Virus record (IMG/VR): IMGVR_UViG_3300016371_000006 | Strand: one strand, 5' to 3' | Length of the DNA: 64,000 nt | Source of the DNA: an uncultured virus (IMG/VR IMGVR_UViG_3300016371_000006) | Lineage: Duplodnaviria; Heunggongvirae; Uroviricota; Caudoviricetes | Shown: positions 3,560-54,060 of the stretch, one piece after another | How the letters are laid out: every line of letters starts with the position of its first letter | Position numbering within the stretch: position 1 is the first letter of the stretch | The notes under the pieces: model-generated | The model's input: the letters and a program-made list of their open reading frames with translations, nothing else | Told to the model about the DNA's origin: nothing | The model's database searches: none | Program-made: the position numbers and the translations under genes

Positions 3560-4000
3560 TCACGCCCAGCCGGGTAACGGCGGCGCGATGTCGTCGGTCA
3601 GATACAACGGCCCCTCCGGGGTGAGTACCGGGAAGCGGCCGGGGTTATCCCCGCGGCGCAGGCTCACCCCCAGCCCGTAGGCCACCATCGGGTGCTCGGT
3701 GAAGTAGCCGTGGCACCCGGTGGTGCCCGACCCGCACAGGTGCAGGATGTTGGCCGGGGTCCACAGCCCGCCCTGGGAGCGGTTGATCCGGTGGTGCATG
3801 TTGGTGGCCGCCACGCCGCAGTATTCGCAGCGGCCACCGGAACGGCCCGGCACAGCGAGCCGGGTGGTGCGCTCGTTCCAGACGAACGGTTCCTTACCCG
3901 ACATCGGGCACCACTGCAGGCCGGCGCCGTCAAAGTGGGCATCGACCACACCGTTGTCCACGGTGACCTCACCCAGGCAGACGGGGCACAGCAACATCAC
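3560..4000 (-). CDS. HNH endonuclease
   Basis: CEYCG...HHRINRSQGG...NILHLCGSGTTGCHG. Confidence 0.8.
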   Translation of the reverse strand: MMLLCPVCLGEVTVDNGVVDAHFDGAGLQWCPMSGKEPFVWNERTTRLAVPGRSGGRCEYCGVAATNMHHRINRSQGGLWTPANILHLCGSGTTGCHGYFTEHPMVAYGLGVSLRRGDNPGRFPVLTPEGPLYLTDDIAPPLPGWA

Positions 4001-12373: not shown

Positions 12374-13129
12374 ATGCCAAGCAAGCCTCCCCCACCTAAG
12401 ACCATCACCCTGCCCGTCACCGAGATCGGTCAGGTCCAGTTCGGCATCTTGGGCATAAGTCCTTATATCCACAGCCGCATGTCAGAGAAGGCCAAGCACG
12501 AACTGCTGTTCCCCAAGGGCCGGCCCAACCAGGCCGAGAAGGCCGCCCGCCTCAAGCACGAGCCCGTCGAGGAGTTCCGGGCCTCCCCCTACACCCTCAA
12601 GGACGAGGACGCCCCGACCTACCTGGCGACCAAGGGCGACATGTTCAAGGCCACCATGCGCACCGCTGCCAAGGACCTGCCCGGCGTCAACGGCGAACAG
12701 ATCGGGCGCCTGGTCTGGGTGGAAGGGATGTACCTGCCGCTGTGGGGTAACGCGAAGCTGCACATGGCCGTCGTGCGCAGCGCCAACCAGCAGAAGACCC
12801 CCGACATCCGCACCCGCGCGATCAGCGAAAAATGGGCCACCGTCATCACGGTGCGTTTCGTCAAGCCGCTGATGAACGAAAAGATCGTCACCAACCTGCT
12901 GTCCACCGGCGGGCAGTCCGCCGGTGTCGGCGACTGGCGCACGGAAAAGGGCAAAGGCACCTTCGGTCAATTCATTCTGATTAACACAGATGAACTTATG
13001 GCACATGAAGTGATGAAAATGGACCGCGCCGTGCAAATCCAAGCAATGGAAGCCGCACAAGCTTTCGATGATGAAACTCAAGAAATGCTCACCTGGTTCG
13101 ACGCCGAACGTGAGGAGCGTGGCCGATGA
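12374..13129 (+). CDS. RAMP/Cas7-like RNA-binding protein, putative effector of the GGY-NN array
   Basis: N-terminal strand QFGILGISPYIH, helix FKATMRTAA, beta-hairpin DIRTRAISEKWATVITVRF, C-terminal Gly-rich loop GGQSAGVGDWRTEKGKGTFGQF. ATG follows GAAAGG. No cas1/cas2 or CRISPR in the window. Confidence 0.7.
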   Translation: MPSKPPPPKTITLPVTEIGQVQFGILGISPYIHSRMSEKAKHELLFPKGRPNQAEKAARLKHEPVEEFRASPYTLKDEDAPTYLATKGDMFKATMRTAAKDLPGVNGEQIGRLVWVEGMYLPLWGNAKLHMAVVRSANQQKTPDIRTRAISEKWATVITVRFVKPLMNEKIVTNLLSTGGQSAGVGDWRTEKGKGTFGQFILINTDELMAHEVMKMDRAVQIQAMEAAQAFDDETQEMLTWFDAEREERGR

Positions 13130-13848
13130 CCAGACCCGCGCTGGTGACAATGCCGGTCAGCAAGCTCATCGAAGACCTGTCGATCTACCCGCGAAGAATT
13201 GTCAACCAGAACCATGTCCGCGACCTGACATCAGCGTTGCAAGCAGCCGAAGGCGCAGATATATTCCCGCCGCTGACCGTGGACCGGCGCTCGAAGCGTA
13301 TTGTCGACGGCTTTCATCGGCGACGAGCTTTCCTAGCGGTACTCGGGCCGGACGCGGAAATTCAAGCCGAACTACGGACCTACCATTCCGAGACGGAACT
13401 GCTTCTCGACGCAGTACGACTCAACTGCGTTCACGGGCTGAATCTTTACGAGATCGAAAAGCGCAGGATTGTTCTGAAGCTGAGCGACCTCGGCGTCGAC
13501 GACGACGAGATCGCCGGCGCGCTGCATGTTCCGCCGGTCCGGGTGCAGCAGATCAAAGTCCGTGTAGCGACGGTCGTCGACGGGGATGGGGCGGTGCTAA
13601 GGCTGGAACCGCTGAAACGACCGCTGTTTCATTTCCAGGGCCGCACGATGAGCGAGGCCCAGGCCGCAGCGGGAACGTCATCACCAGGCGGCTCGTATAT
13701 GCAAACAATCAGAGCTCTGCAAGATGGGCTGCGGTATCGGTTACTGCCAACCGACGGACGCATCGACGCCGCTCTGCGGACGTTGGCCGCCCTGCTTGAT
13801 AACTACTTGGAAGGGGATGAGGAGGAAGGTATTGCCGCGTCGGTGTAA
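13126..13848 (+). CDS. ParB/Srx N-terminal-domain protein, accessory to the RAMP-like gene
   Basis: LIEDLSIYPR, FPPLTVD...IVDGFHRRRA, LNCVHGLNL followed by an HTH; ATGA overlap with the upstream gene. Confidence 0.8.
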   Translation: MTRPALVTMPVSKLIEDLSIYPRRIVNQNHVRDLTSALQAAEGADIFPPLTVDRRSKRIVDGFHRRRAFLAVLGPDAEIQAELRTYHSETELLLDAVRLNCVHGLNLYEIEKRRIVLKLSDLGVDDDEIAGALHVPPVRVQQIKVRVATVVDGDGAVLRLEPLKRPLFHFQGRTMSEAQAAAGTSSPGGSYMQTIRALQDGLRYRLLPTDGRIDAALRTLAALLDNYLEGDEEEGIAASV

Positions 13849-13865
13849 CAGACGCGGACGGCAAT

Positions 13866-15656
13866 GGTGCGGTTCGGTCAGATGGCGTAAGGCAGTTGCG
13901 GTCCGGTGGGGCACGGCTCGGTTAGGCATGGACAGTTACGGAATGGCCGGGTCAGTTCTGGTGAGGCGAGTTGCGGTCTGGTAAGGCGGGATCGGGTCTG
14001 GTCTGGTACGGCTGTTGAGGACGGTACGGCAAGGCATGGTGGGGTCGGGCGTGTTGCGGCGTGGTCGGGCGAGTTGCGGTCTGGCATGGCACGGTCGGGA
14101 ATGGTGGGGGTTAGGTGCGGCTGTTGAGGTGACGTCTGGTGCGGCGTGTCTAGGTGAGTTCGGGCAAGGTCGGGCGAGGTCTGGCGAGGTGCGGTCGGGT
14201 GCGGCCGTTGGGGTTGGGCATGGTGTGGTGAGGTGTGGCGCGGCGTGTTGCGTGAGACACGGTGCGGCAAGGCCCGGTGTGGAGGGTCAGGCAGGATAGG
14301 GCGGGGTTCGGTGCGGCCGTTGGGGAATGGTCCGGTTTGGTCGGGTTTGGTGCGGTCTGGAACGGCGAGTTCAGGCAAGGTTCGGTGCGGCTGTTGAGGC
14401 GAGTTCCGGCGCGGTTAGGCCTGGCGAGGTTTGGCCTGGCGAGGTATGGCCCGGTCGGGTGCGGCTGTTGGGGTTAGGTCGGGTTACGTGAGGTCTGGAG
14501 AGTTGAGGCATGGCGCGGTGCGGCATGGCATGGGATGGAGAGGTTAGGTCCGGTCGGGCGCGATAAGTTGCGGTGAGATGAGGCTGTTGTGGTGGGGTTG
14601 GGTTTGGCGAGTTACGGCCTGGTAAGGCGTGGTCGGGTCCGGTTGGGTCTGGTGAGGCCGTTGCGGTTAGTTCGGGTTTGGTGGGGTCCGGTCGGGTGTG
14701 GCGTGGCAAGGTCTGGCGAGGTCTGGAAGGCGAGTTGTGGTGAGGTGCGGCCGTTGCGGTCTGGTGGGGTGAGGCATGGCGGGGTCGGGAACGGCACGGC
14801 GTGGTTAGGCGAGTCTAGGTCTGGTGCGGTGAGGCTGTTGAGGCATGGTCCGGTCGGGTGAGGCGAGGTTAGGTGGGTTTGGGTCCGGTCTGGTGTGGCG
14901 TGGCTTGGCTAGGTTTGGCGCGGTGAGGCTGGGTGAGGTGCGGTTCGGCTGTTGCGGTGTGGCATGTTGAGGACGGGTACGGCAGGGCATGGTGGGGCCG
15001 GGCACGTCAAGGAGTGGATAGGTGGGCTCTGGCATGGCGAGGCGAGTTGCGGTGCGGCAGTTTTGGCATGTTAAGGCGTGGCACGGTGGGGACGGGTCAG
15101 GTGTGGAGGGCTAGGCAAGGTTGGGTGAGGTGCGGCTGTTGTGGTCTGGCACGTTGCGGTGTGGCCCGGCGTGGTCGGGCAAGGTCCGGTAAGGCACGGC
15201 AGGTACGGCGGGGTATGGTCCGGTGCGGTCGGCACGGTTGGGTCGGGTTAGTTTGGGCGCGGCAGGGTGTGGCGGGGCAAGGTGGGGTCCGGTAAGGTGC
15301 GGCAGCTAAGGTCCGGTTGGGTTCGGTCGGGTTGGGCGGGGAGAGGTACGGCAAGATCCGGTGCGGCCCGGCGAGGTTTGGCGGGTTCCGGTGAGGTGCG
15401 GCTGCTGCGGTAAGGCATGGTGAGGTTCGGCAAGGCGAGGTCGGGTGAGGTCTGGTCGGGTGCGGTGAGGCATGGTCGGGTAAGGTGCGGCAGCTGCGGT
15501 CTGGCGCGTTCAGGAGAGGTCGGGTTAGGTCGGGTGGGGTCTGTTGGGGCATGTTCCGGCTAGGCGTGGCAAGGTGCGGCAGTTGAGGCGCGGTCTGGTG
15601 AGGTCCGGTTTGGTTAGTTGGGGCTCGGTGGGGCACGGCACGGCGGGGTGAGGTAC
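13866..15656 (+). ncRNA. Array of GGY-NN pentamer repeats, 19 segments; putative guide-RNA array
   Basis: 5-nt periodicity (GG[T/C]NN, occasionally GTT/GGA/GAT). 4-nt GGC[TAC] delimiters, usually in the context GGTGC-GGCN-GTTG, at 13891, 14010, 14119, 14203, 14315, 14389, 14463, 14582, 14656, 14749, 14833, 14947, 15056, 15134, 15198, 15301, 15400, 15489 and 15578. 15 of 19 segment lengths are exactly 5n+4. No credible ORF. Confidence 0.85.
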
Positions 15657-15658
15657 GG

Positions 15659-15692
15659 CCTCGGGGCACTGGCGGTTGCTGGTGCCCCGAGG
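15659..15692. terminator. Hairpin closing the array, between convergent transcription units
   Basis: CCTCGGGGCAC...GTGCCCCGAGG perfect 11-bp stem. Confidence 0.7.
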
Positions 15693-18518: not shown

Positions 18519-18951
18519 TTACTGCGTGGGGCCGACAGGCTTCGCCCAATCGCCATTCGTGTCGTGTCGGCGCCGGCCGTTGCGGATGCTGTCCCAGGTA
18601 TTCGCGCTGCGGGTATCCCACCGCAAGTTGCCGATGCAATTATTGAGCCGGACATCATCGTGGTGGCATGCTTCCATCCCGGTTGGGCATGGCCCGAACC
18701 ACGCCTCCAGAACAACGATGTGAAGATCGACGGTGCGCTTCATTCCCGGCTGCCGTAAGCCGATCTTCAGATAGCCGCTCCGTTTGTCGATCCACGGCGC
18801 TATCGGCTTGCCCCGTAGCCGTCGCGGGTTTGCACCGCCCCACCTGTTCGCGGTAACGACGATCCGATCGACGGACCGGACGCGGCCATCACTGCTTACT
18901 TCGTAGTAGCCCTCGAAGCCGAGGACCTCGCGCCATTCAACTGAGATCATC
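18519..18951 (-). CDS. NUMOD4 + HNH homing endonuclease
   Basis: EWREVLGFEGYYEVSSDGRVRSVDR...ACHHDD...NLRWDTRSAN; start uncertain. Confidence 0.85.
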
Positions 18952-19148
18952 AGCGGAACATTCGGGACAAAGCAGTTCAGGGAAGGTGTCGTCGATCCAG
19001 CGCAGCCACCACCCGTCCACCGTGGCCACCCGCTGACGGGCCTCGTCGGCCTCGGCGAAGGTGTGGTACTCCGTGTCAGGCTCAGCGCGCACCCGGCAGC
19101 GGTCACACATGATCGTGTACCGGGCGGTGATGTCGATGCCGCCGGCCA

Positions 19149-19559
19149 TCATCTGCCGAGCCGTGATTGCAGCAGCGCCAGTCCCCCAACAGGCTCCCAT
19201 CGAAGATTCGCTAATTTGTTGTTGGCCGGGTCGTCGTCGATGTTACGGGCGTCGTAGCCGGGCGGCTGCGCGCGGCCGGTGAACGCTTCGAGCACCAGGC
19301 GCTTCACCGGGAACTGGATGTAGTCGTTCTCGATCCACAGGTTGACCGCGCGGGTGCCGTCGTTGGGCCGCACGCGCGGGGAGAGAATCCTGCCCTTCAC
19401 GGTGCGGATGCACGGCACGCCGTCGCGGCCGGTGCGCCCGGCGACCTGGCGGGTGACCGATCGGATGCGGCCCATATCGGAGGCTTGGTAGGCGGCCGAG
19501 AAGCGCGGATCAAGAACCGGGCGCCACTGCTCGACGACCATCTCAACCTGCCCGATCAA
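19149..19559 (-). CDS. NUMOD4/HNH-like protein (degenerate HNH)
   Basis: YQASDMGRIRS...RLVLEAF...NIDDDPANNKLANLRW. Confidence 0.75.
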   Translation of the reverse strand: MIGQVEMVVEQWRPVLDPRFSAAYQASDMGRIRSVTRQVAGRTGRDGVPCIRTVKGRILSPRVRPNDGTRAVNLWIENDYIQFPVKRLVLEAFTGRAQPPGYDARNIDDDPANNKLANLRWEPVGGLALLQSRLGR

Positions 19560-20076
19560 GGTCGTTATGAGTGAACAGCTCGTTTCGCTTGGCGGTCACT
19601 GCGGCATCAGCAGCGGCCAGCGAAGCGAAACGGCCGACCCAATACTTCCGACCGTGGTGTCTTACCTCTGCCCGCCAGCAGTTTCTGTGACTGTCCCAGA
19701 TGACGCCGCGCATCCCCGACGTGTTGTTGGCATTAAGTCCGGCGCGGTTCTCCTGGTTCTGTTTATTGCTGACGCGACGTAGATGCTGAGGATTCACGCA
19801 GACAAGGTTGTGACAGCGGTGGTCGATCTGGACGCCTTTGATCGGTCCGACACAGAGCTCATACGAAAGTCGATGCGCGAACACGCCTCGATGATTGCCA
19901 ATCGTCAGCTGGCCGTAGCCTGTGCGCTTTGAGATCCCACCAGTCCATATCCAGCACCTGGTGCCGAGCTGCGGGTGAACGGGTCCTTTCTTGTCAACCT
20001 TGGCCCAGAACCATTCGCCGATATCAGCATCGAGCGGGAGGTATCGCCCATGTCCGTCGCGGCGCCGCTCCATCAC
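19543..20076 (-). CDS. HNH endonuclease with AP2-like domain
   Basis: CWIWTG, AHRLSY, DHRCHNLVCVNPQHL, SGMRGV. Confidence 0.85.
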   Translation of the reverse strand: MMERRRDGHGRYLPLDADIGEWFWAKVDKKGPVHPQLGTRCWIWTGGISKRTGYGQLTIGNHRGVFAHRLSYELCVGPIKGVQIDHRCHNLVCVNPQHLRRVSNKQNQENRAGLNANNTSGMRGVIWDSHRNCWRAEVRHHGRKYWVGRFASLAAADAAVTAKRNELFTHNDLDRAG

Positions 20077-20843: not shown

Positions 20844-22544
20844 ATGGTTGATGTTTTGAAGGGCTTCTCCACCCGGGCGACTCCGCAGAGCCAGCCCGCC
20901 GGCGCCGCGACGGTGCGCAACGCCGCCGGCGGCCATGTGTTCGCGATCGACGACATGGCCCGGCTGCGCCGATTCCTGACGATCGGGACCTCCGGCGGCA
21001 CGTACTACACCAGCGCGCCGGAGCTCACGCGCGAGAACGCCGAAGTCGTGCTGCGGTTGGCGCAGAGCAATCCCTTCGCCCTGGTCGATGAGATCGTCGC
21101 GATCTCCACCGCGGGGCGCGCGCCCAAGGCCAACCCGGCGATCTTCGCGCTGGCGATCGCCGCGGCCGAGGGCGCCAACGACCCCGAGCGGGGATCGGGC
21201 CGTAAGTATGCGCTGTCGAAGTTGCCCGCGGTGTGTCGCACCGGGACGCATATGTACCTGTTCGCCGGGTACGTCGAGCAGTTCCGCGGCTGGGGTCGCG
21301 GCCTGAAGCGCGCCGTCGGCGAGTGGTACAACGGCCGGTCGGTCGACAAGTTGGCCTACCAGATCCTCAAGTACCGCCAGCGCGAGGGCTGGCGGCACGC
21401 CGACCTGCTGGCGCTCTCCCATCCCGCGCCGGACACCGCGATGCGAGACAACCTCTACCGCTATATCACCGACACCATGACCGGGCGCGACCCCGAGCAC
21501 GTCGAGCGGATGGCGCCCCACCGCGAGCACTACCAGGTCTTCCCGGCTGACAAGATTCCGGCGCTGCCTGATCTGATCGGTGCCTACGAGCAGGTGCAGA
21601 ACGCCACCGCACTGCAGGCGGTCAACCTGATCGCCGAGCACGACCTGTCCTGGGAGATGCTGCCCGACAAGCTGCTGGGCGAGGCGCTGGTGTGGGAGGC
21701 GCTGATCGGCAAGGGGATGCCGCAGACCGCGCTGATGCGCCAGCTGCCCCGGCTGACCCGGCTGGGCCTGACCACCGGCAAGACCGGCAACCTGATCGCC
21801 GAGCAGTTGCAGGACACGCAGAAGCTCAAGCTGGGCCGAGTGCACCCGATCAACGTGCTGGTCGCGCAGCGCACCTACGCCAGCGGCCGCAGCGCGCGGC
21901 GCGGTGACTCCACCTGGGAGCCGACGCGCAAGATCACCGACGCGCTCGACGCGGCGTTCTACAACGCCTACGGCGCGGTTGAGCCGTCGGGCAAGTCGGT
22001 GCTGCTGGCCTGCGACGTGTCGGGCTCGATGGGCGCCTCGGCCGGGGGCCTGCCGATCACCTGCCGGGAGGTGTGCGCGGCGCTGTCGCTAGTGAGCCTG
22101 AACGTCGAGCGCGATGCCGACATCATCGGGTTCTCCGACGGGCGCAGCCACGGCGGCTACGGGATGTACTCCAACAGCGTGGCCTCGCGGCTGGACATCA
22201 GCGCGCGGCGGCGCCTCGACGACGTGTGCTCCTACATGGCGGGCCTGAACTTCGGGCGCACGGATTGCTCTTTGCCAATGCTATGGGCGATGAAGAACAA
22301 GCTGGACTTCTCAGCAATTCAGGTGTACACGGACAATGAGACTTGGTATGGAAGCGTTCATCCTTGGCAAGCTCTTGACCAGTACCGGAACATGGTTGGT
22401 CACGACGTCAGCCTAGCGGTGATCGCGATGACAGCAACCAGAGGAAGCATCGCAAACCCCGACGATCCTCGCCAGATGGACGTTGCTGGCTTCGACGTTT
22501 CGGTTCCGCAAGTCCTATCCGATTTCGCTGCGTGTCGTATCTGA
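20844..22544 (+). CDS. rsr: Ro60/TROVE-domain RNA-binding protein with vWA domain
   Basis: NAAGG, RLRRFLTIGTSGGTYY, GWGRGLKRAV.EWY, KYRQREGWRH.DLL.LSHP, DVSGSM, TDNETW, MDVAGFD; RBS AGGAGG. Confidence 0.92.
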   Translation: MVDVLKGFSTRATPQSQPAGAATVRNAAGGHVFAIDDMARLRRFLTIGTSGGTYYTSAPELTRENAEVVLRLAQSNPFALVDEIVAISTAGRAPKANPAIFALAIAAAEGANDPERGSGRKYALSKLPAVCRTGTHMYLFAGYVEQFRGWGRGLKRAVGEWYNGRSVDKLAYQILKYRQREGWRHADLLALSHPAPDTAMRDNLYRYITDTMTGRDPEHVERMAPHREHYQVFPADKIPALPDLIGAYEQVQNATALQAVNLIAEHDLSWEMLPDKLLGEALVWEALIGKGMPQTALMRQLPRLTRLGLTTGKTGNLIAEQLQDTQKLKLGRVHPINVLVAQRTYASGRSARRGDSTWEPTRKITDALDAAFYNAYGAVEPSGKSVLLACDVSGSMGASAGGLPITCREVCAALSLVSLNVERDADIIGFSDGRSHGGYGMYSNSVASRLDISARRRLDDVCSYMAGLNFGRTDCSLPMLWAMKNKLDFSAIQVYTDNETWYGSVHPWQALDQYRNMVGHDVSLAVIAMTATRGSIANPDDPRQMDVAGFDVSVPQVLSDFAACRI

Positions 22545-22571: not shown

Positions 22572-22661
22572 GCCGTGGTGTGGTGCGTTATGGCACGGCG
22601 CGGTACGGCGGGACGTGGTTCGGTATGGCGCGTCGAGGTCCGGCAAGGTGAGTTACGGTAA
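22572..22661 (+). ncRNA. Stand-alone GGY-NN guide-like unit (18 pentamers)
   Basis: gccgt ggtgt ggtgc gttat ggcac ggcgc ggtac ggcgg gacgt ggttc ggtat ggcgc gtcga ggtcc ggcaa ggtga gttac ggtaa; preceded by TATCCT (possible -10, 22560-22565) and followed by a hairpin. Confidence 0.8.
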
Positions 22662-22663
22662 CC

Positions 22664-22696
22664 GAGGGCAGGGTCACTTCAGGTGGCCCTGCCTTC
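22664..22696 (+). terminator. Hairpin after the stand-alone guide
   Basis: GAGGGCAGGGTCAC-TTCAG-GTGGCCCTGCCTTC, 14-bp stem with two G-U pairs. Confidence 0.65.
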
Positions 22697-22717
22697 CTTC
22701 TCGGAGTCACATCTGAC

Positions 22718-22953: not shown

Positions 22954-23337
22954 CTACCAGTCCTCGCTCGGCACTCCGGTGTCGGGGACCAGCTCCTCGG
23001 GGCCTTTCATGGAGTTGCAGCCGAAATGCGCTGACGCCCAGTTGTTGCGGTCCATCAGCAGCTCGGGCCGGTCCTTCACCGAGATCATGTGCTCGAGCGA
23101 CCAGGACAACGGGTGTGGGTAGGCCAGGTTGTAGTCGATGGGCTCGCCGTCGATGACGCACGGCGCCCCGATGGACCCATCGGGGTTGCGCTGCACGGCG
23201 CAGCGCGCCCGGTAGGCGTCGCGGCCGGACTTGTACTCCTGGGTGGAGCGGATGGTACGGGTGTTGACCGGGCGCTTGACCCACTTGATCGTGGTGTCGG
23301 TTTCGGGCACGTCGTCGTACAGGTCCTCGTCACTCAC
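22954..23337 (-). CDS. HNH endonuclease (packaging-associated type)
   Basis: CVIDGEPIDY..HPLSWSLEHMIS...PEL..D..N..SAHFGCNSMKG. Confidence 0.75.
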   Translation of the reverse strand: MSDEDLYDDVPETDTTIKWVKRPVNTRTIRSTQEYKSGRDAYRARCAVQRNPDGSIGAPCVIDGEPIDYNLAYPHPLSWSLEHMISVKDRPELLMDRNNWASAHFGCNSMKGPEELVPDTGVPSEDW

Positions 23338-24416
23338 GCGATGCGGACCTTCTCCTGCGTGGCGCGGGCCCGCCAGCCGGACATCGACGCCACCACGGCG
23401 GCGTTCGGTGTCTCGTAGGCTTCCTCGGTGGCGGGGTCCCACATGTAGGTGATCGGCTTCTGGTAGGCCAGCTTCTCCAGGTTGGGGTCGGTGATGCAGA
23501 CCGGGGTGGCGTCGGTGGGCGCGACGAACGCGAAGTTGCCGAGCACCTGGGAGGCGTCGTTGAAGGTCGCCGCGGTGAACGCCACGTCGTAGATCAGCGG
23601 GTAGTACGGGGCCGGGATCGCCAGGATGGGACTGTTGGACACCAGCTGGCAGCCGGCGGTGTCGACGTAGTCGATGGTGGACAGCACGCCGGCCATGATG
23701 CGGGCTTGGCGCGCCGGGATGGAGATCGACGTGGGCGCGGTGACCCGCGGGGAGCCGGTCGCGGTGGTGGCCACGGTCATGGTGGCGTCATAGCCGTTGG
23801 CGTCGATCAGGTCGGTCCACTGCAGCACCATCGGCAGCATCGCCGTATTGCCCAGGGCGCCGGTGAACTCCACGTCGTAGCTCTGCGGGTTGATGCCCTG
23901 CACGACCAGCACGTTGCCGGTGCCGATGGACGGCAGCGCGGCCAGCGCTGATTGCAGGGCGGCCGGGGTCACGTTGTAGGGCTGCGCCGGGGTGATGTCG
24001 GACGCCGACAGCGGGCTCTGCACGGTGAACGTGCCCTGCACCGGGTTGCCGATCAGCGTGATCGTCTGCTCGGCGTTGTAGGCCGCGGTGATCAGGTAGT
24101 CGGCCACGAACGCCTGGTACCCGATCGGCAGCCGCGGCGTGAAGGTGACCAGGGCGTTGACCGGCTGCAGCACCGGGTCGTTGATGGTGCCCGACACGGA
24201 CGGGTCGGCCACCGCGTAGAAGCTGCCTGACACGGGGAAGAACGGGATGCTGTAGGGGCCGAGCGCCGCGGTCAGGGTGCCTTCGCCGGAGAAGTTGGGC
24301 ACCGGCGGCACGCCCGGAACCACGGCCACCGGGCAGGCGTGTGGCGACGGCGGCGAGGCGGGCAGCGGAAGCGTGCAGAGCGTGCCCTCGCTACCAAAAT
24401 CACCCGGAGTGGTCAT
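23334..24416 (-). CDS. Putative virion/beta-rich protein
   Basis: EQTITL.G....GTFTV...PYNVTPAALQSALAALPSIGTGNV.V...YDVEF pattern seen in phage structural proteins. Confidence 0.55.
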   Translation of the reverse strand: MTTPGDFGSEGTLCTLPLPASPPSPHACPVAVVPGVPPVPNFSGEGTLTAALGPYSIPFFPVSGSFYAVADPSVSGTINDPVLQPVNALVTFTPRLPIGYQAFVADYLITAAYNAEQTITLIGNPVQGTFTVQSPLSASDITPAQPYNVTPAALQSALAALPSIGTGNVLVVQGINPQSYDVEFTGALGNTAMLPMVLQWTDLIDANGYDATMTVATTATGSPRVTAPTSISIPARQARIMAGVLSTIDYVDTAGCQLVSNSPILAIPAPYYPLIYDVAFTAATFNDASQVLGNFAFVAPTDATPVCITDPNLEKLAYQKPITYMWDPATEEAYETPNAAVVASMSGWRARATQEKVRIA

Positions 24417-25085: not shown

Positions 25086-25571
25086 ATGACGGATGCTACG
25101 CGCCGCTTCTGGTTCAACGTCGATAAGAACGGGCCTGTCCGCGTGTTGAATCTTGGCCAGTGCTGGATGTGGCTTGGCGGCACGGTTAGCAACGGCCGGG
25201 CGCGTTACGGCATTTTCTATGTCGGCAGCAAGCAGGTCAGGGTACATAGGTTTTCATGGTTCCTTGTTTACGGATCGGTACCCGCGATCCTGGATCACCG
25301 CTGCCGCAATACCCTCTGCGTGCGACCCGATCATTTACGGCCGGCGACAAGGAAAACCAATAATGAGAACCGCGTTGGCGCGAACCGCAATGGCAGATCA
25401 GGTGTGCAGGGCGCGCACTGGGATAAAAGATCAGGGAAGTGGCTAGCTCGTGTGCGTCATAACGGCAGGGATATTCAGGTAGGAGTTTTTAGGACAGCTG
25501 AACAAGCTGGTGAGGCGGCAAGATTGAAGCGACTCGAACTGTTCACATACAACGATGCGGATCGTCCTTAG
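25086..25571 (+). CDS. HNH endonuclease with AP2-like domain
   Basis: RFWFNVDK, CWMWLG, VHRFSW, DHRCRNTLCVRPDHL; lower GC and opposite strand, consistent with an insertion. Confidence 0.85.
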   Translation: MTDATRRFWFNVDKNGPVRVLNLGQCWMWLGGTVSNGRARYGIFYVGSKQVRVHRFSWFLVYGSVPAILDHRCRNTLCVRPDHLRPATRKTNNENRVGANRNGRSGVQGAHWDKRSGKWLARVRHNGRDIQVGVFRTAEQAGEAARLKRLELFTYNDADRP

Positions 25572-37831: not shown

Positions 37832-38565
37832 CTTTCTGTGTGGGTGTTTCCTTCGTGGGGTGTCCGTCGGCGGACACGTCTTTGTGCTGGTCGAGTCGGT
37901 TGATCGCCTCCTCGAACCTGCGGTCCTCGTTCGGGCCGTGATGCCAGGCGCGCGGGCGCTTGCCGCCCTTGCCCTTCTGGTCCTTGGGGCTCATAACCGC
38001 GGCCCTCCGTTGCACCAGGCATCGGGCAGGAAGCCGCCTTTGGACAGCCAGCCGTCGAGCGCCTCGATGTAATCGACGAGCAGGTCGAACCGCTCAGCCC
38101 GGTCAAACGCGGTAAGCGAGGGGCCGTACTGGGGTACCTGGATTAGCTCTCGTAGCTGTTTGAGCGTCTCGTTGGGGTCCATCTCAGTCTCCTTTCAGCC
38201 GTTTCAGCCGGCCCAGCAGCAGGTACTGGACCAGATCAACGAATGTGGTGCCGATGTGGCCGACGACCAGCGTCACACCATCGGAGTCGGTGTGAACGAG
38301 GTCGGCGGTCCCATCGGTGTTGCGATCGCCCAACTCCCAGCCGGGCAGCAGCCCGGCCCGGTAGGTTTCGCCTAGGTTGCCCATGACTCCGCCAACTCAC
38401 GGTCGATCAGCGCGATCTTGAGCCGCGCCAGCTCGCGCTCCGCGTCGGTGACGAGGATCAGCCACAGCCACGGCTCCCACTGCGCGCGGTAGGCCAGCAA
38501 GGCTTCCTTGATTACGTCCATTTCGTTCCTTTCTCGTGCATGGCATCAGATCGGCAACCAGCGTT

Positions 38566-53571: not shown

Positions 53572-54060
53572 TCAGGCGTGTTTGTGGGTGCGGTTATAGC
53601 GGTCGCGGGCACGCTCACGGGCCCGGATCAGCTCGCCGTTACGTCGGCGGTACTCACGGTGGTAATCGGTGCGTTGGCTAGTGGCGCCAGCGGTTTGACC
53701 TGTTCCGTTTCTGTGGCGGCCGTGCTGCACCTTGGCTTGTTCGTTGGCGACGGCGGTCTTCCAGCTCAGGTTGTTTAGCGTGTTGTTGATCTTGTTGTCG
53801 TCGGCGTGGCAGCCGTGTATCCGCCCTGGTGGTCGGGGCCCGACCCATGCCTCGAGGATCAGGTCATGGACGTAGCGGAACTTCCCGCCGACGTTAACGC
53901 GCAGGTAGCCCTTCTCGTTGGGAAAGGGTTTCAGGAGCTTGCCTAGGCGTCGTTCCGTGCGGCCGTTGCTTTTCCTGATGGTTCGGTCGATGCTGCGGAT
54001 TCGTCCGTGGTCGCTGGCTTGGTATCCGGGTGCGCCGGGTATACCTTTCCACCGCTCCAT
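53572..54060 (-). CDS. NUMOD4 + HNH endonuclease
   Basis: ERWKGIPG..GYQASDHGRIRSIDR, VHDLILEAW, CHADDNKINN. Confidence 0.85.
   Translation of the reverse strand: MERWKGIPGAPGYQASDHGRIRSIDRTIRKSNGRTERRLGKLLKPFPNEKGYLRVNVGGKFRYVHDLILEAWVGPRPPGRIHGCHADDNKINNTLNNLSWKTAVANEQAKVQHGRHRNGTGQTAGATSQRTDYHREYRRRNGELIRARERARDRYNRTHKHA

Follow-up and report, generated by a model that had tools for sequence, protein, structure and literature searches.

A stretch of viral DNA 64,000 nucleotides long (hereafter the window) carries, behind two genes, a dense array of five-base repeats, and the question raised by this locus is which genes the guides of the array read and what a phage might gain by reading them. 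A first-pass annotation, made from the letters alone, had decoded at least six of the guides into excisionase/AlpA-type HTH proteins and had proposed that the array is focused on blocking the excision or induction of resident prophages or satellites.

The locus and its guide array

Judged from its genes, the window is a segment of a large actinobacterial phage. A PHROGs profile search recovered a replication initiator, an exonuclease, Ku, WhiB, ParB, Ro60 and many HNH genes, while no cas family was found among the 117 window ORFs and Rfam gave no match in the window, Y RNA included. Eight HNH endonuclease-family ORFs are spread over the 64 kb (3560-4000, 18519-20076, 22954-23442, 25086-25571, 37991-38182, 53572-54060). 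The window sequence is present in soil metagenome runs, and the phage AAA ATPase is nearest to mycobacteriophages (38%).

The first of the two genes in front of the array has 1114 relatives, 118 of which were used to build an AF2 structure model (pLDDT 90.8). The top 26 structural matches of this model all belong to CRISPR RAMP proteins or complexes, the best one reaching Z 8.8 over 150 aligned positions (rmsd 3.8), and the protein has no Pfam match and no PDB match by sequence. The product is hence, as modelled, a RAMP-fold Vipr encoded outside any CRISPR locus. Homologues of the second gene, vap, sit behind vipr in three related loci (L292, L293, L322), and both ORFs are intact here. Further copies of this vipr locus were found neither in viral contigs nor in record G333. 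Divergent from vipr, a strong sigma-70-like promoter on the minus strand (12291-12264) lies upstream of a 61-aa ORF.

A script parse of positions 13860-15660 yields 319 five-base repeats, 264 of which have the form GGY+NN; the remaining 55/319 depart from GGY, with prefixes GTT, GGA and GAT, and the SUSP1 pocket reportedly bars purines at Y. Several four-base GG+NN repeats without the Y still hold the target register, and two of them give the right residue when compared with real genes (S in unit 15198, R in unit 15056). The array contains 18 nine-base junctions, each moving the phase by one base, and 20 units (Table 1), which have 6-23 repeats each and no tail of their own. For scoring these 20 units, the last pentamer, mostly a constant GGTGC, was dropped, as was the junction token of 15198, and the lead-in at 13860 was excluded. 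The array was found identical on a single contig in two of the four metagenome runs examined (possibly the DNA's own source) and in L342, whereas reads of the other two runs did not span it; a variant joint skipping 598 bases in X24 was of low depth and was not trusted. Together these features identify the locus as a phage VIPR system in its staggered-array form.

Table 1. Coordinates of the VIPR genes, the array and the guides discussed (window positions)
Feature	Position	Strand	Basis
vipr gene, 251 aa, predicted RAMP fold	12374..13129	+	AF2 model, structural matches, phrog_4652, GVGDWR motif resembling a G-loop (alignment A1)
vap-like accessory gene, ParB-like N-terminus and weak HTH	13126..13848	+	phrog_1033 E 2e-12; HTH_23 E 0.044
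Staggered GGY/NN guide array, 20 units	13891..15656	+	junction GGCN+G(T/C)T with phase shift; most units close with GGTGC; GC skew 0.50
Guide reading the C-terminal end of a vap gene, presumably from a rival VIPR	13891..14009	+	31/44 to own vap at 13681
Guide possibly reading HTH_17 C-terminus	14463..14581	+	10.6 bits, p=0.006
Guide to wing of Xis-type HTH_17 genes (L5 gp36 family)	14656..14748	+	29/34 to L234; 28.5 bits
Guide probably to HTH_17 recognition helix	14749..14832	+	13.9 bits, p=2e-4 (subfamily profile chosen after seeing guide)
Guide to HTH_17 recognition helix	14947..15055	+	18.0 bits, p=5e-5 (second subfamily profile); 28/40 to L439
Guide to wing of island HTH_17 gene	15056..15133	+	single match, 22/28, ORF 27.4 bits
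Guide to island HTH_17 genes (TGxPASTWRYW type)	15198..15300	+	exact 22/22 pattern in L139; best 33/38, L147
Guide, island repressor or HTH_17 wing	15400..15488	+	repressor profile 14.5 bits, p=0.0015; HTH_17 profile 13.6 bits, p=0.001
Guide to island HTH_17 genes (QDRY type)	15489..15577	+	30/32 in L084 and L086
Guide reading SAM-binding motif of N6/N4 DNA methylases	15578..15656	+	own gene 21/28, p=0.007
3' hairpin closing array	15659..15692	+	15-pair stem, -32.3 kcal/mol
Solo guide with 3' hairpin, reads Ro60 vWA motif	22577..22705	+	33 bases behind phage Ro60 gene

Guides that read HTH_17 genes

Reading each NN mechanically as codon positions 1-2 regained, with the ambiguities stated at the time, the peptides that the first-pass annotation had decoded by hand at 14463, 14656, 14749, 14947, 15056, 15198 and 15489. 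A one-base skip was the best for all five guides tested, while skips of 0, 2 and 3 bases and reversed guides gave background. Matches to real genes are in frame and in the coding sense, with the skipped base at codon position 3 (wobble), and the sites lie on HTH_17 codons for the recognition helix or the wing.

Direct scans of genomes allowed the gapped pattern at most 3 mismatches, the reversed pattern serving as control. Guide 15489 has 8 matches in 251 genomes as against 0 for the reversed pattern; 7/8 fall in frame within ORFs of 64-76 aa, all seven of which match HTH_17 (only one above the Pfam cut-off), and held-out bases agree at 44/56 positions in these seven matches as against 2/8 in the chance match. 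A tyrosine integrase adjoins the target in six of the seven neighbourhoods, the seventh lying at a contig edge, and in three a recognised HTH_3 repressor stands between target and integrase. Guide 15198 gives 23 matches versus 16 for controls in 201 genomes, comprising 14 in HTH ORFs, one in an ORF that begins as HTH and then diverges, and 8 by chance; all seven matches with 0-2 mismatches fall in HTH ORFs, and held-out bases agree at 135/224 in the 14 HTH matches versus 35/128 in the 8 non-gene matches. All six target ORFs scanned match HTH_17 (3 above cut-off), an integrase is present in 13/14 neighbourhoods, and on the other side are found Prim-Pol, AAA_25, DUF3631, DUF3987, D5/DUF5906, terS or capsid genes. 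Guide 15056 has a single match, as against 0 for controls, in 166 genomes; it lies inside an HTH_17 ORF with an adjoining integrase and terS downstream, and only 2/6 of its held-out bases agree.

Further support comes from a guide-independent HTH set, the loci of which were chosen by Pfam or natural alignments (239 domains, 151 with DNA). On this set guide 14656 stands out, its fit to L234 having p=0.0005 (2000 shuffles averaged 19.6 and peaked at 24) and its profile score p=5e-5; the L234 ORF itself matches HTH_17 at 35 bits, all four target ORFs scanned match HTH_17, L5 gp36 belongs to the family of this target, and an integrase occurs in the 2-6 kb locus of 9 of its 12 best genes. Direct scans with 14656 gave 0 matches in 201 genomes, another scan 27 versus about 100 for controls (hand count) with none in an HTH ORF, and exact gapped scans 0 and then 3 matches outside genes. 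On the same set 15198 has p=0.003 and 15056 p=0.054, and 15489 fails, probably because its subfamily has an insertion. Guides 15489, 15198, 14656 and 15056 thus match real HTH_17 (PF12728) genes in frame, in the coding sense and with the wobble base skipped.

The remaining candidates were scored in part on a second subfamily profile of 71 rows, seeded after the guides had been seen. Guide 14947 fits HTH_17 at the family level; the best gene for it adjoins an integrase, integrases occur in the 2-6 kb locus of 8 of its 12 best genes, its p on the guide-independent HTH set is 0.16, and its direct scan gave 1 chance match versus 3 for controls. For 14749 the best gene reaches only 19/30, p on the guide-independent HTH set is 0.02, and a direct scan of 201 genomes gave no match. 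An integrase N-terminus as its target (22/30 in L112) was rejected on an integrase profile (p=0.62). Exact scans with 14749 and 14947 returned 17 matches, 1 in an HTH_17 ORF and 2 in other HTH-like ORFs, none extending well. On a narrow profile a score of about 14 bits may deceive: two unrelated families give it for unit 15400, with a nearly equal fit to an HTH_17 wing and to island HTH_3 repressors, and the assignment of 14749 to an HTH_17 gene is for this reason likely rather than settled. Should the repressor be the target of 15400, the effect would be induction of an element and not its holding. For 14463 no gene exceeds 22/44 (p=0.007 on the guide-independent HTH set), and 41 exact 16-base matches in viral contigs do not extend; several exact matches in DUF2184 major capsids fall out of register, and that family was rejected as its target.

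The "at least six" excisionase-type guides of the earlier claim therefore stand as five firm and one likely (14749), whereas the seventh decoded peptide, 14463, is weak. The 13 units that it had not named all have p>=0.27 on the guide-independent HTH set, and a profile made from 20 island integrases is fitted by none of the guides. The threshold of 80% set in the VIPR paper is reached by just three guides. Within the window, units of at least 11 repeats find no self target at >=80% (best match 21/28), the six HTH-type guides reach only 17/28 to 23/38-40, and, in agreement with the annotation, no HTH_17 or integrase match exists in the 64 kb. As to focus, 6/10 units between 14656 and 15577 are of this type, but only 6/20 overall, so the array is only partly focused on HTH_17. 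In related VIPR loci, 4/236 parsed units (three distinct) score as HTH_17-like on mycobacterial profiles (L302:596, L305:2, L346:5789, L351:700), and hence the target class recurs yet is a minority.

The neighbours of matched HTH_17 genes include integrase, HTH_3 repressor, Prim-Pol, AAA_25, DUF3987, DUF5906, DUF3631, terS and capsid genes. Integrase, regulator pair and primase occur together in the target neighbourhoods; the HTH_17 gene either heads an operon pointing away from the repressor/integrase pair or comes after the integrase, with the primase downstream. The carriers are probably for the most part PICI-like islands, a layout seen in neighbourhoods of 5-20 kb each, and some may be prophages. 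Defence-type cargo in the target islands includes BrxA and a Panacea antitoxin (L152:13791-14462; L110:15480-15986). An exact target element was not found, exact scans of viral and metagenome contigs giving 0 or chance matches (0 for 15489 in both). A profile search across 1.8 billion proteins brought up multi-HTH proteins, and its output was set aside; a PF12728 search was dominated by a chromosomal gene. The family named earlier, HTH_17/AlpA, holds as HTH_17 but not as AlpA proper, since PF05930 matches only 6/121 genomes of the genus, one above cut-off; the target ORFs themselves have no PF05930 match at E 0.01.

The gapped searches in Mycobacterium that the first-pass annotation had proposed thus found HTH_17 genes beside integrases as best matches (15489 6/7, 15198 13/14, 15056 1/1, 14656 9/12 best), and shuffled guides scored lower than real ones, the reverse of the refuting outcome set beforehand. 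Target homologues carry the names Mycobacterium or Mycolicibacterium. On account of the phage gene content and the genomes in which guides match, mycobacteria are probably the host; the in-depth genome search covered the genus of G049, assigned to Mycobacterium by its PPE matches, and hosts from other genera are possible. Nothing here rests on the unpublished genomes G016 and G025.

Guides with other readings

The first unit of the array, 13891, matches the phage's own vap gene better than any window null (31/44 versus a maximum of 29, p=0.003), and its first six residues are those of the L292 vap and differ from the own vap, which is suggestive of a rival VIPR as its target. In other loci, guides at L309:2681 and L316:1349 partly match the vipr of their own locus and are probably directed at rival vipr genes. 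The last unit, 15578, reaches 23/28 on the methylase of L288, where 8 shuffles gave 19-21; unit 14315 resembles a methylase motif, but p=0.12. Outside the array, the solo guide at 22577 matches the Ro60 of genome G245 at 27/32, a prophage Ro60 at 26/32 and the phage's own gene (TROVE + vWA, 20844-22544) at 24/32 (p=0.002); no paper joining vrRNA with Ro60 was found. Each of 13891, 15578 and 22577 adjoins the phage's own copy of the family it reads (122-167 bases from its stop, 70-75% match); in related loci a guide beside its own gene occurs for 3/173 units at p<=0.01, not above chance. In the 2.8 Mb of sequence compared, units 14010, 14119, 14242, 14389, 14582, 14833, 15134 and 15301 match nothing better than their shuffles do, 14582 equalling the shuffle maximum.

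Proposed function and relation to known systems

By analogy with published VIPRs, we regard it as probable that the phage places a roadblock on the excision/activator gene of resident islands, together with a polar block of the replication genes behind it. The array transcript would be processed into guides at the junctions where the phase shifts; Vipr subunits would coat GGY and expose the NN pairs, which would pair with the template strand of the target with the third base skipped, as shown for SUSP1. Five to six guides might thereby cover different subfamilies of a small HTH_17 gene in integrated mycobacterial elements, and a Vipr filament on this gene would halt the excisionase/activator and, through a polar effect, the genes for replication as well, and resident islands would thereby remain integrated during phage growth. 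In the VIPR papers, GGY is held within the filament and NN displayed, with transcription repressed on either strand (10.64898/2026.04.26.720920; 10.64898/2026.10.15.759431; preprint 720927), and the SUSP1 VIPR keeps its satellite integrated (10.64898/2026.10.15.759431); it is because of this precedent that we infer the block on excision. For the target family, PF12728 is treated as AlpA in the PICMI model and DUF3987/DUF5906 stand for the primase; there alpA, represented by PF05930 or PF12728, is both necessary and sufficient for excision (PMC10803314). L5 gp36 is likewise described as an excisionase (PMC12266134), and many candidate PICIs are reported in mycobacterial genomes, for which phage induction or carriage "remains to be determined" (PMC10654092).

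A different view would make full temperate prophages or co-infecting phages the main targets, an Xis/Cro-like gene being silenced to prevent induction of a competitor or its entry into lysis. The family read by 14656 does take in "excise" genes of over 200 mycobacteriophage records, P. fulva clade VIPRs reportedly aim mostly at prophage lysis-lysogeny regulators, L111 has phage-like genes (WhiB, a second integrase) beyond the target, and the vap, methylase and Ro60 guides put rival phages among the targets. However, 14656 matches L5 gp36 at only 22/34 as opposed to 26-29/34 for island-type genes, and a primase and terS or capsid lie within a few kb of the 15489, 15198 and 15056 matches, which renders this view rather unlikely. 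It is still less probable that the HTH_17 gene is a mere conserved landing site at the head of an operon, the useful effect being a polar block of primase/replication genes (or of the regulator) with excision unaffected. In its favour, most neighbourhoods have the gene upstream of replication genes, and related proteins also regulate transcription (D29 Gp36, PMC12266134); yet AlpA/Xis-type genes are required for excision in PICMI and L5 (PMC10803314; PMC12266134), and the guide sites are the most conserved helix and wing codons, across several subfamilies.

The resemblance might also be no more than motif reading by eye, or the array a decayed relic without present function, given that short HTH motifs are common, that the core shared by 14749 and 14947 also occurs in non-HTH_17 HTH proteins and that eight units lack any target. 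Against this, controls with reversed or shuffled guides or with other skips fail, both vipr and vap are intact, and 3/20 units reach 13 bits on guide-independent profiles where 0.02 are expected and the maximum was 1 in 500 shuffled arrays; this explanation is largely refuted for 15489, 15198 and 14656, and overall we consider it very improbable. Going beyond the roadblock on excision, it can be speculated, with considerable reserve, that the phage serves several unrelated mycobacterial PICI-like islands as their helper, with the array being a record of them, converged on a shared switch gene (at least four HTH_17 subfamilies) as a broad anti-satellite device, and that the guides beside the phage's own vap, methylase and Ro60 genes silence rival or host alleles and spare its own, an RNA-guided allele exclusion that would include shut-off of host Ro60.

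These guides tie a specific phage to mycobacterial islands through the switch genes that they read, and they constitute ready reagents for testing which gene governs excision. In the literature searched, no report was found of guides converging on the HTH_17 genes of mycobacterial islands, and terms for excisionase, mycobacteria or actinobacteria are absent from the text and supplement PDF of Yoon et al., the data files S1-S4 of which may list such targets (S3 in particular); HTH_17 of mycobacterial islands hence seems to be an unpublished VIPR target class.

With respect to known systems, the target genes share with the HTH_17 Xis/AlpA-type genes of PICI, PICMI and L5 both the family and the gene order (integrase, repressor, HTH_17, primase), whereas the targets here are mostly below the Pfam cut-off, do not belong to PF05930 and are candidate excisionases only. 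The locus resembles the VIPR of Yoon et al. (10.64898/2026.04.26.720920) in its RAMP-fold Vipr, DNA-binding-type vap, GGY/NN repeats, one-base wobble skip and one-base phase shift between units, and in being phage-borne with targets in other mobile elements and guides against other VIPRs; the staggered array is the form described in the legend of fig. S18 of that paper. In contrast to that system, its 20 units (6-23 repeats each) have no tails of their own, and the probable host is mycobacterial. The SUSP1 VIPR that acts on F5 satellites (Lopez et al., 10.64898/2026.10.15.759431) is similarly directed against the excision of a resident satellite, as would be the case here, and likewise reads conserved codons, skips the wobble base and includes solo guides. 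It hits the recombinase of one satellite family, whereas here several guides read different HTH_17 subfamilies and do not fit the 20-integrase profile; unlike in SUSP1, the solo guide is in a VIPR-positive phage and reads Ro60. While VIPR, wobble skipping and satellite immobilisation are already published, what this case adds is a class of targets, a probable mycobacterial host for the analysis of VIPR targets and a solo guide that reads Ro60; it also brings in a second choke point, the directionality factor rather than the recombinase.
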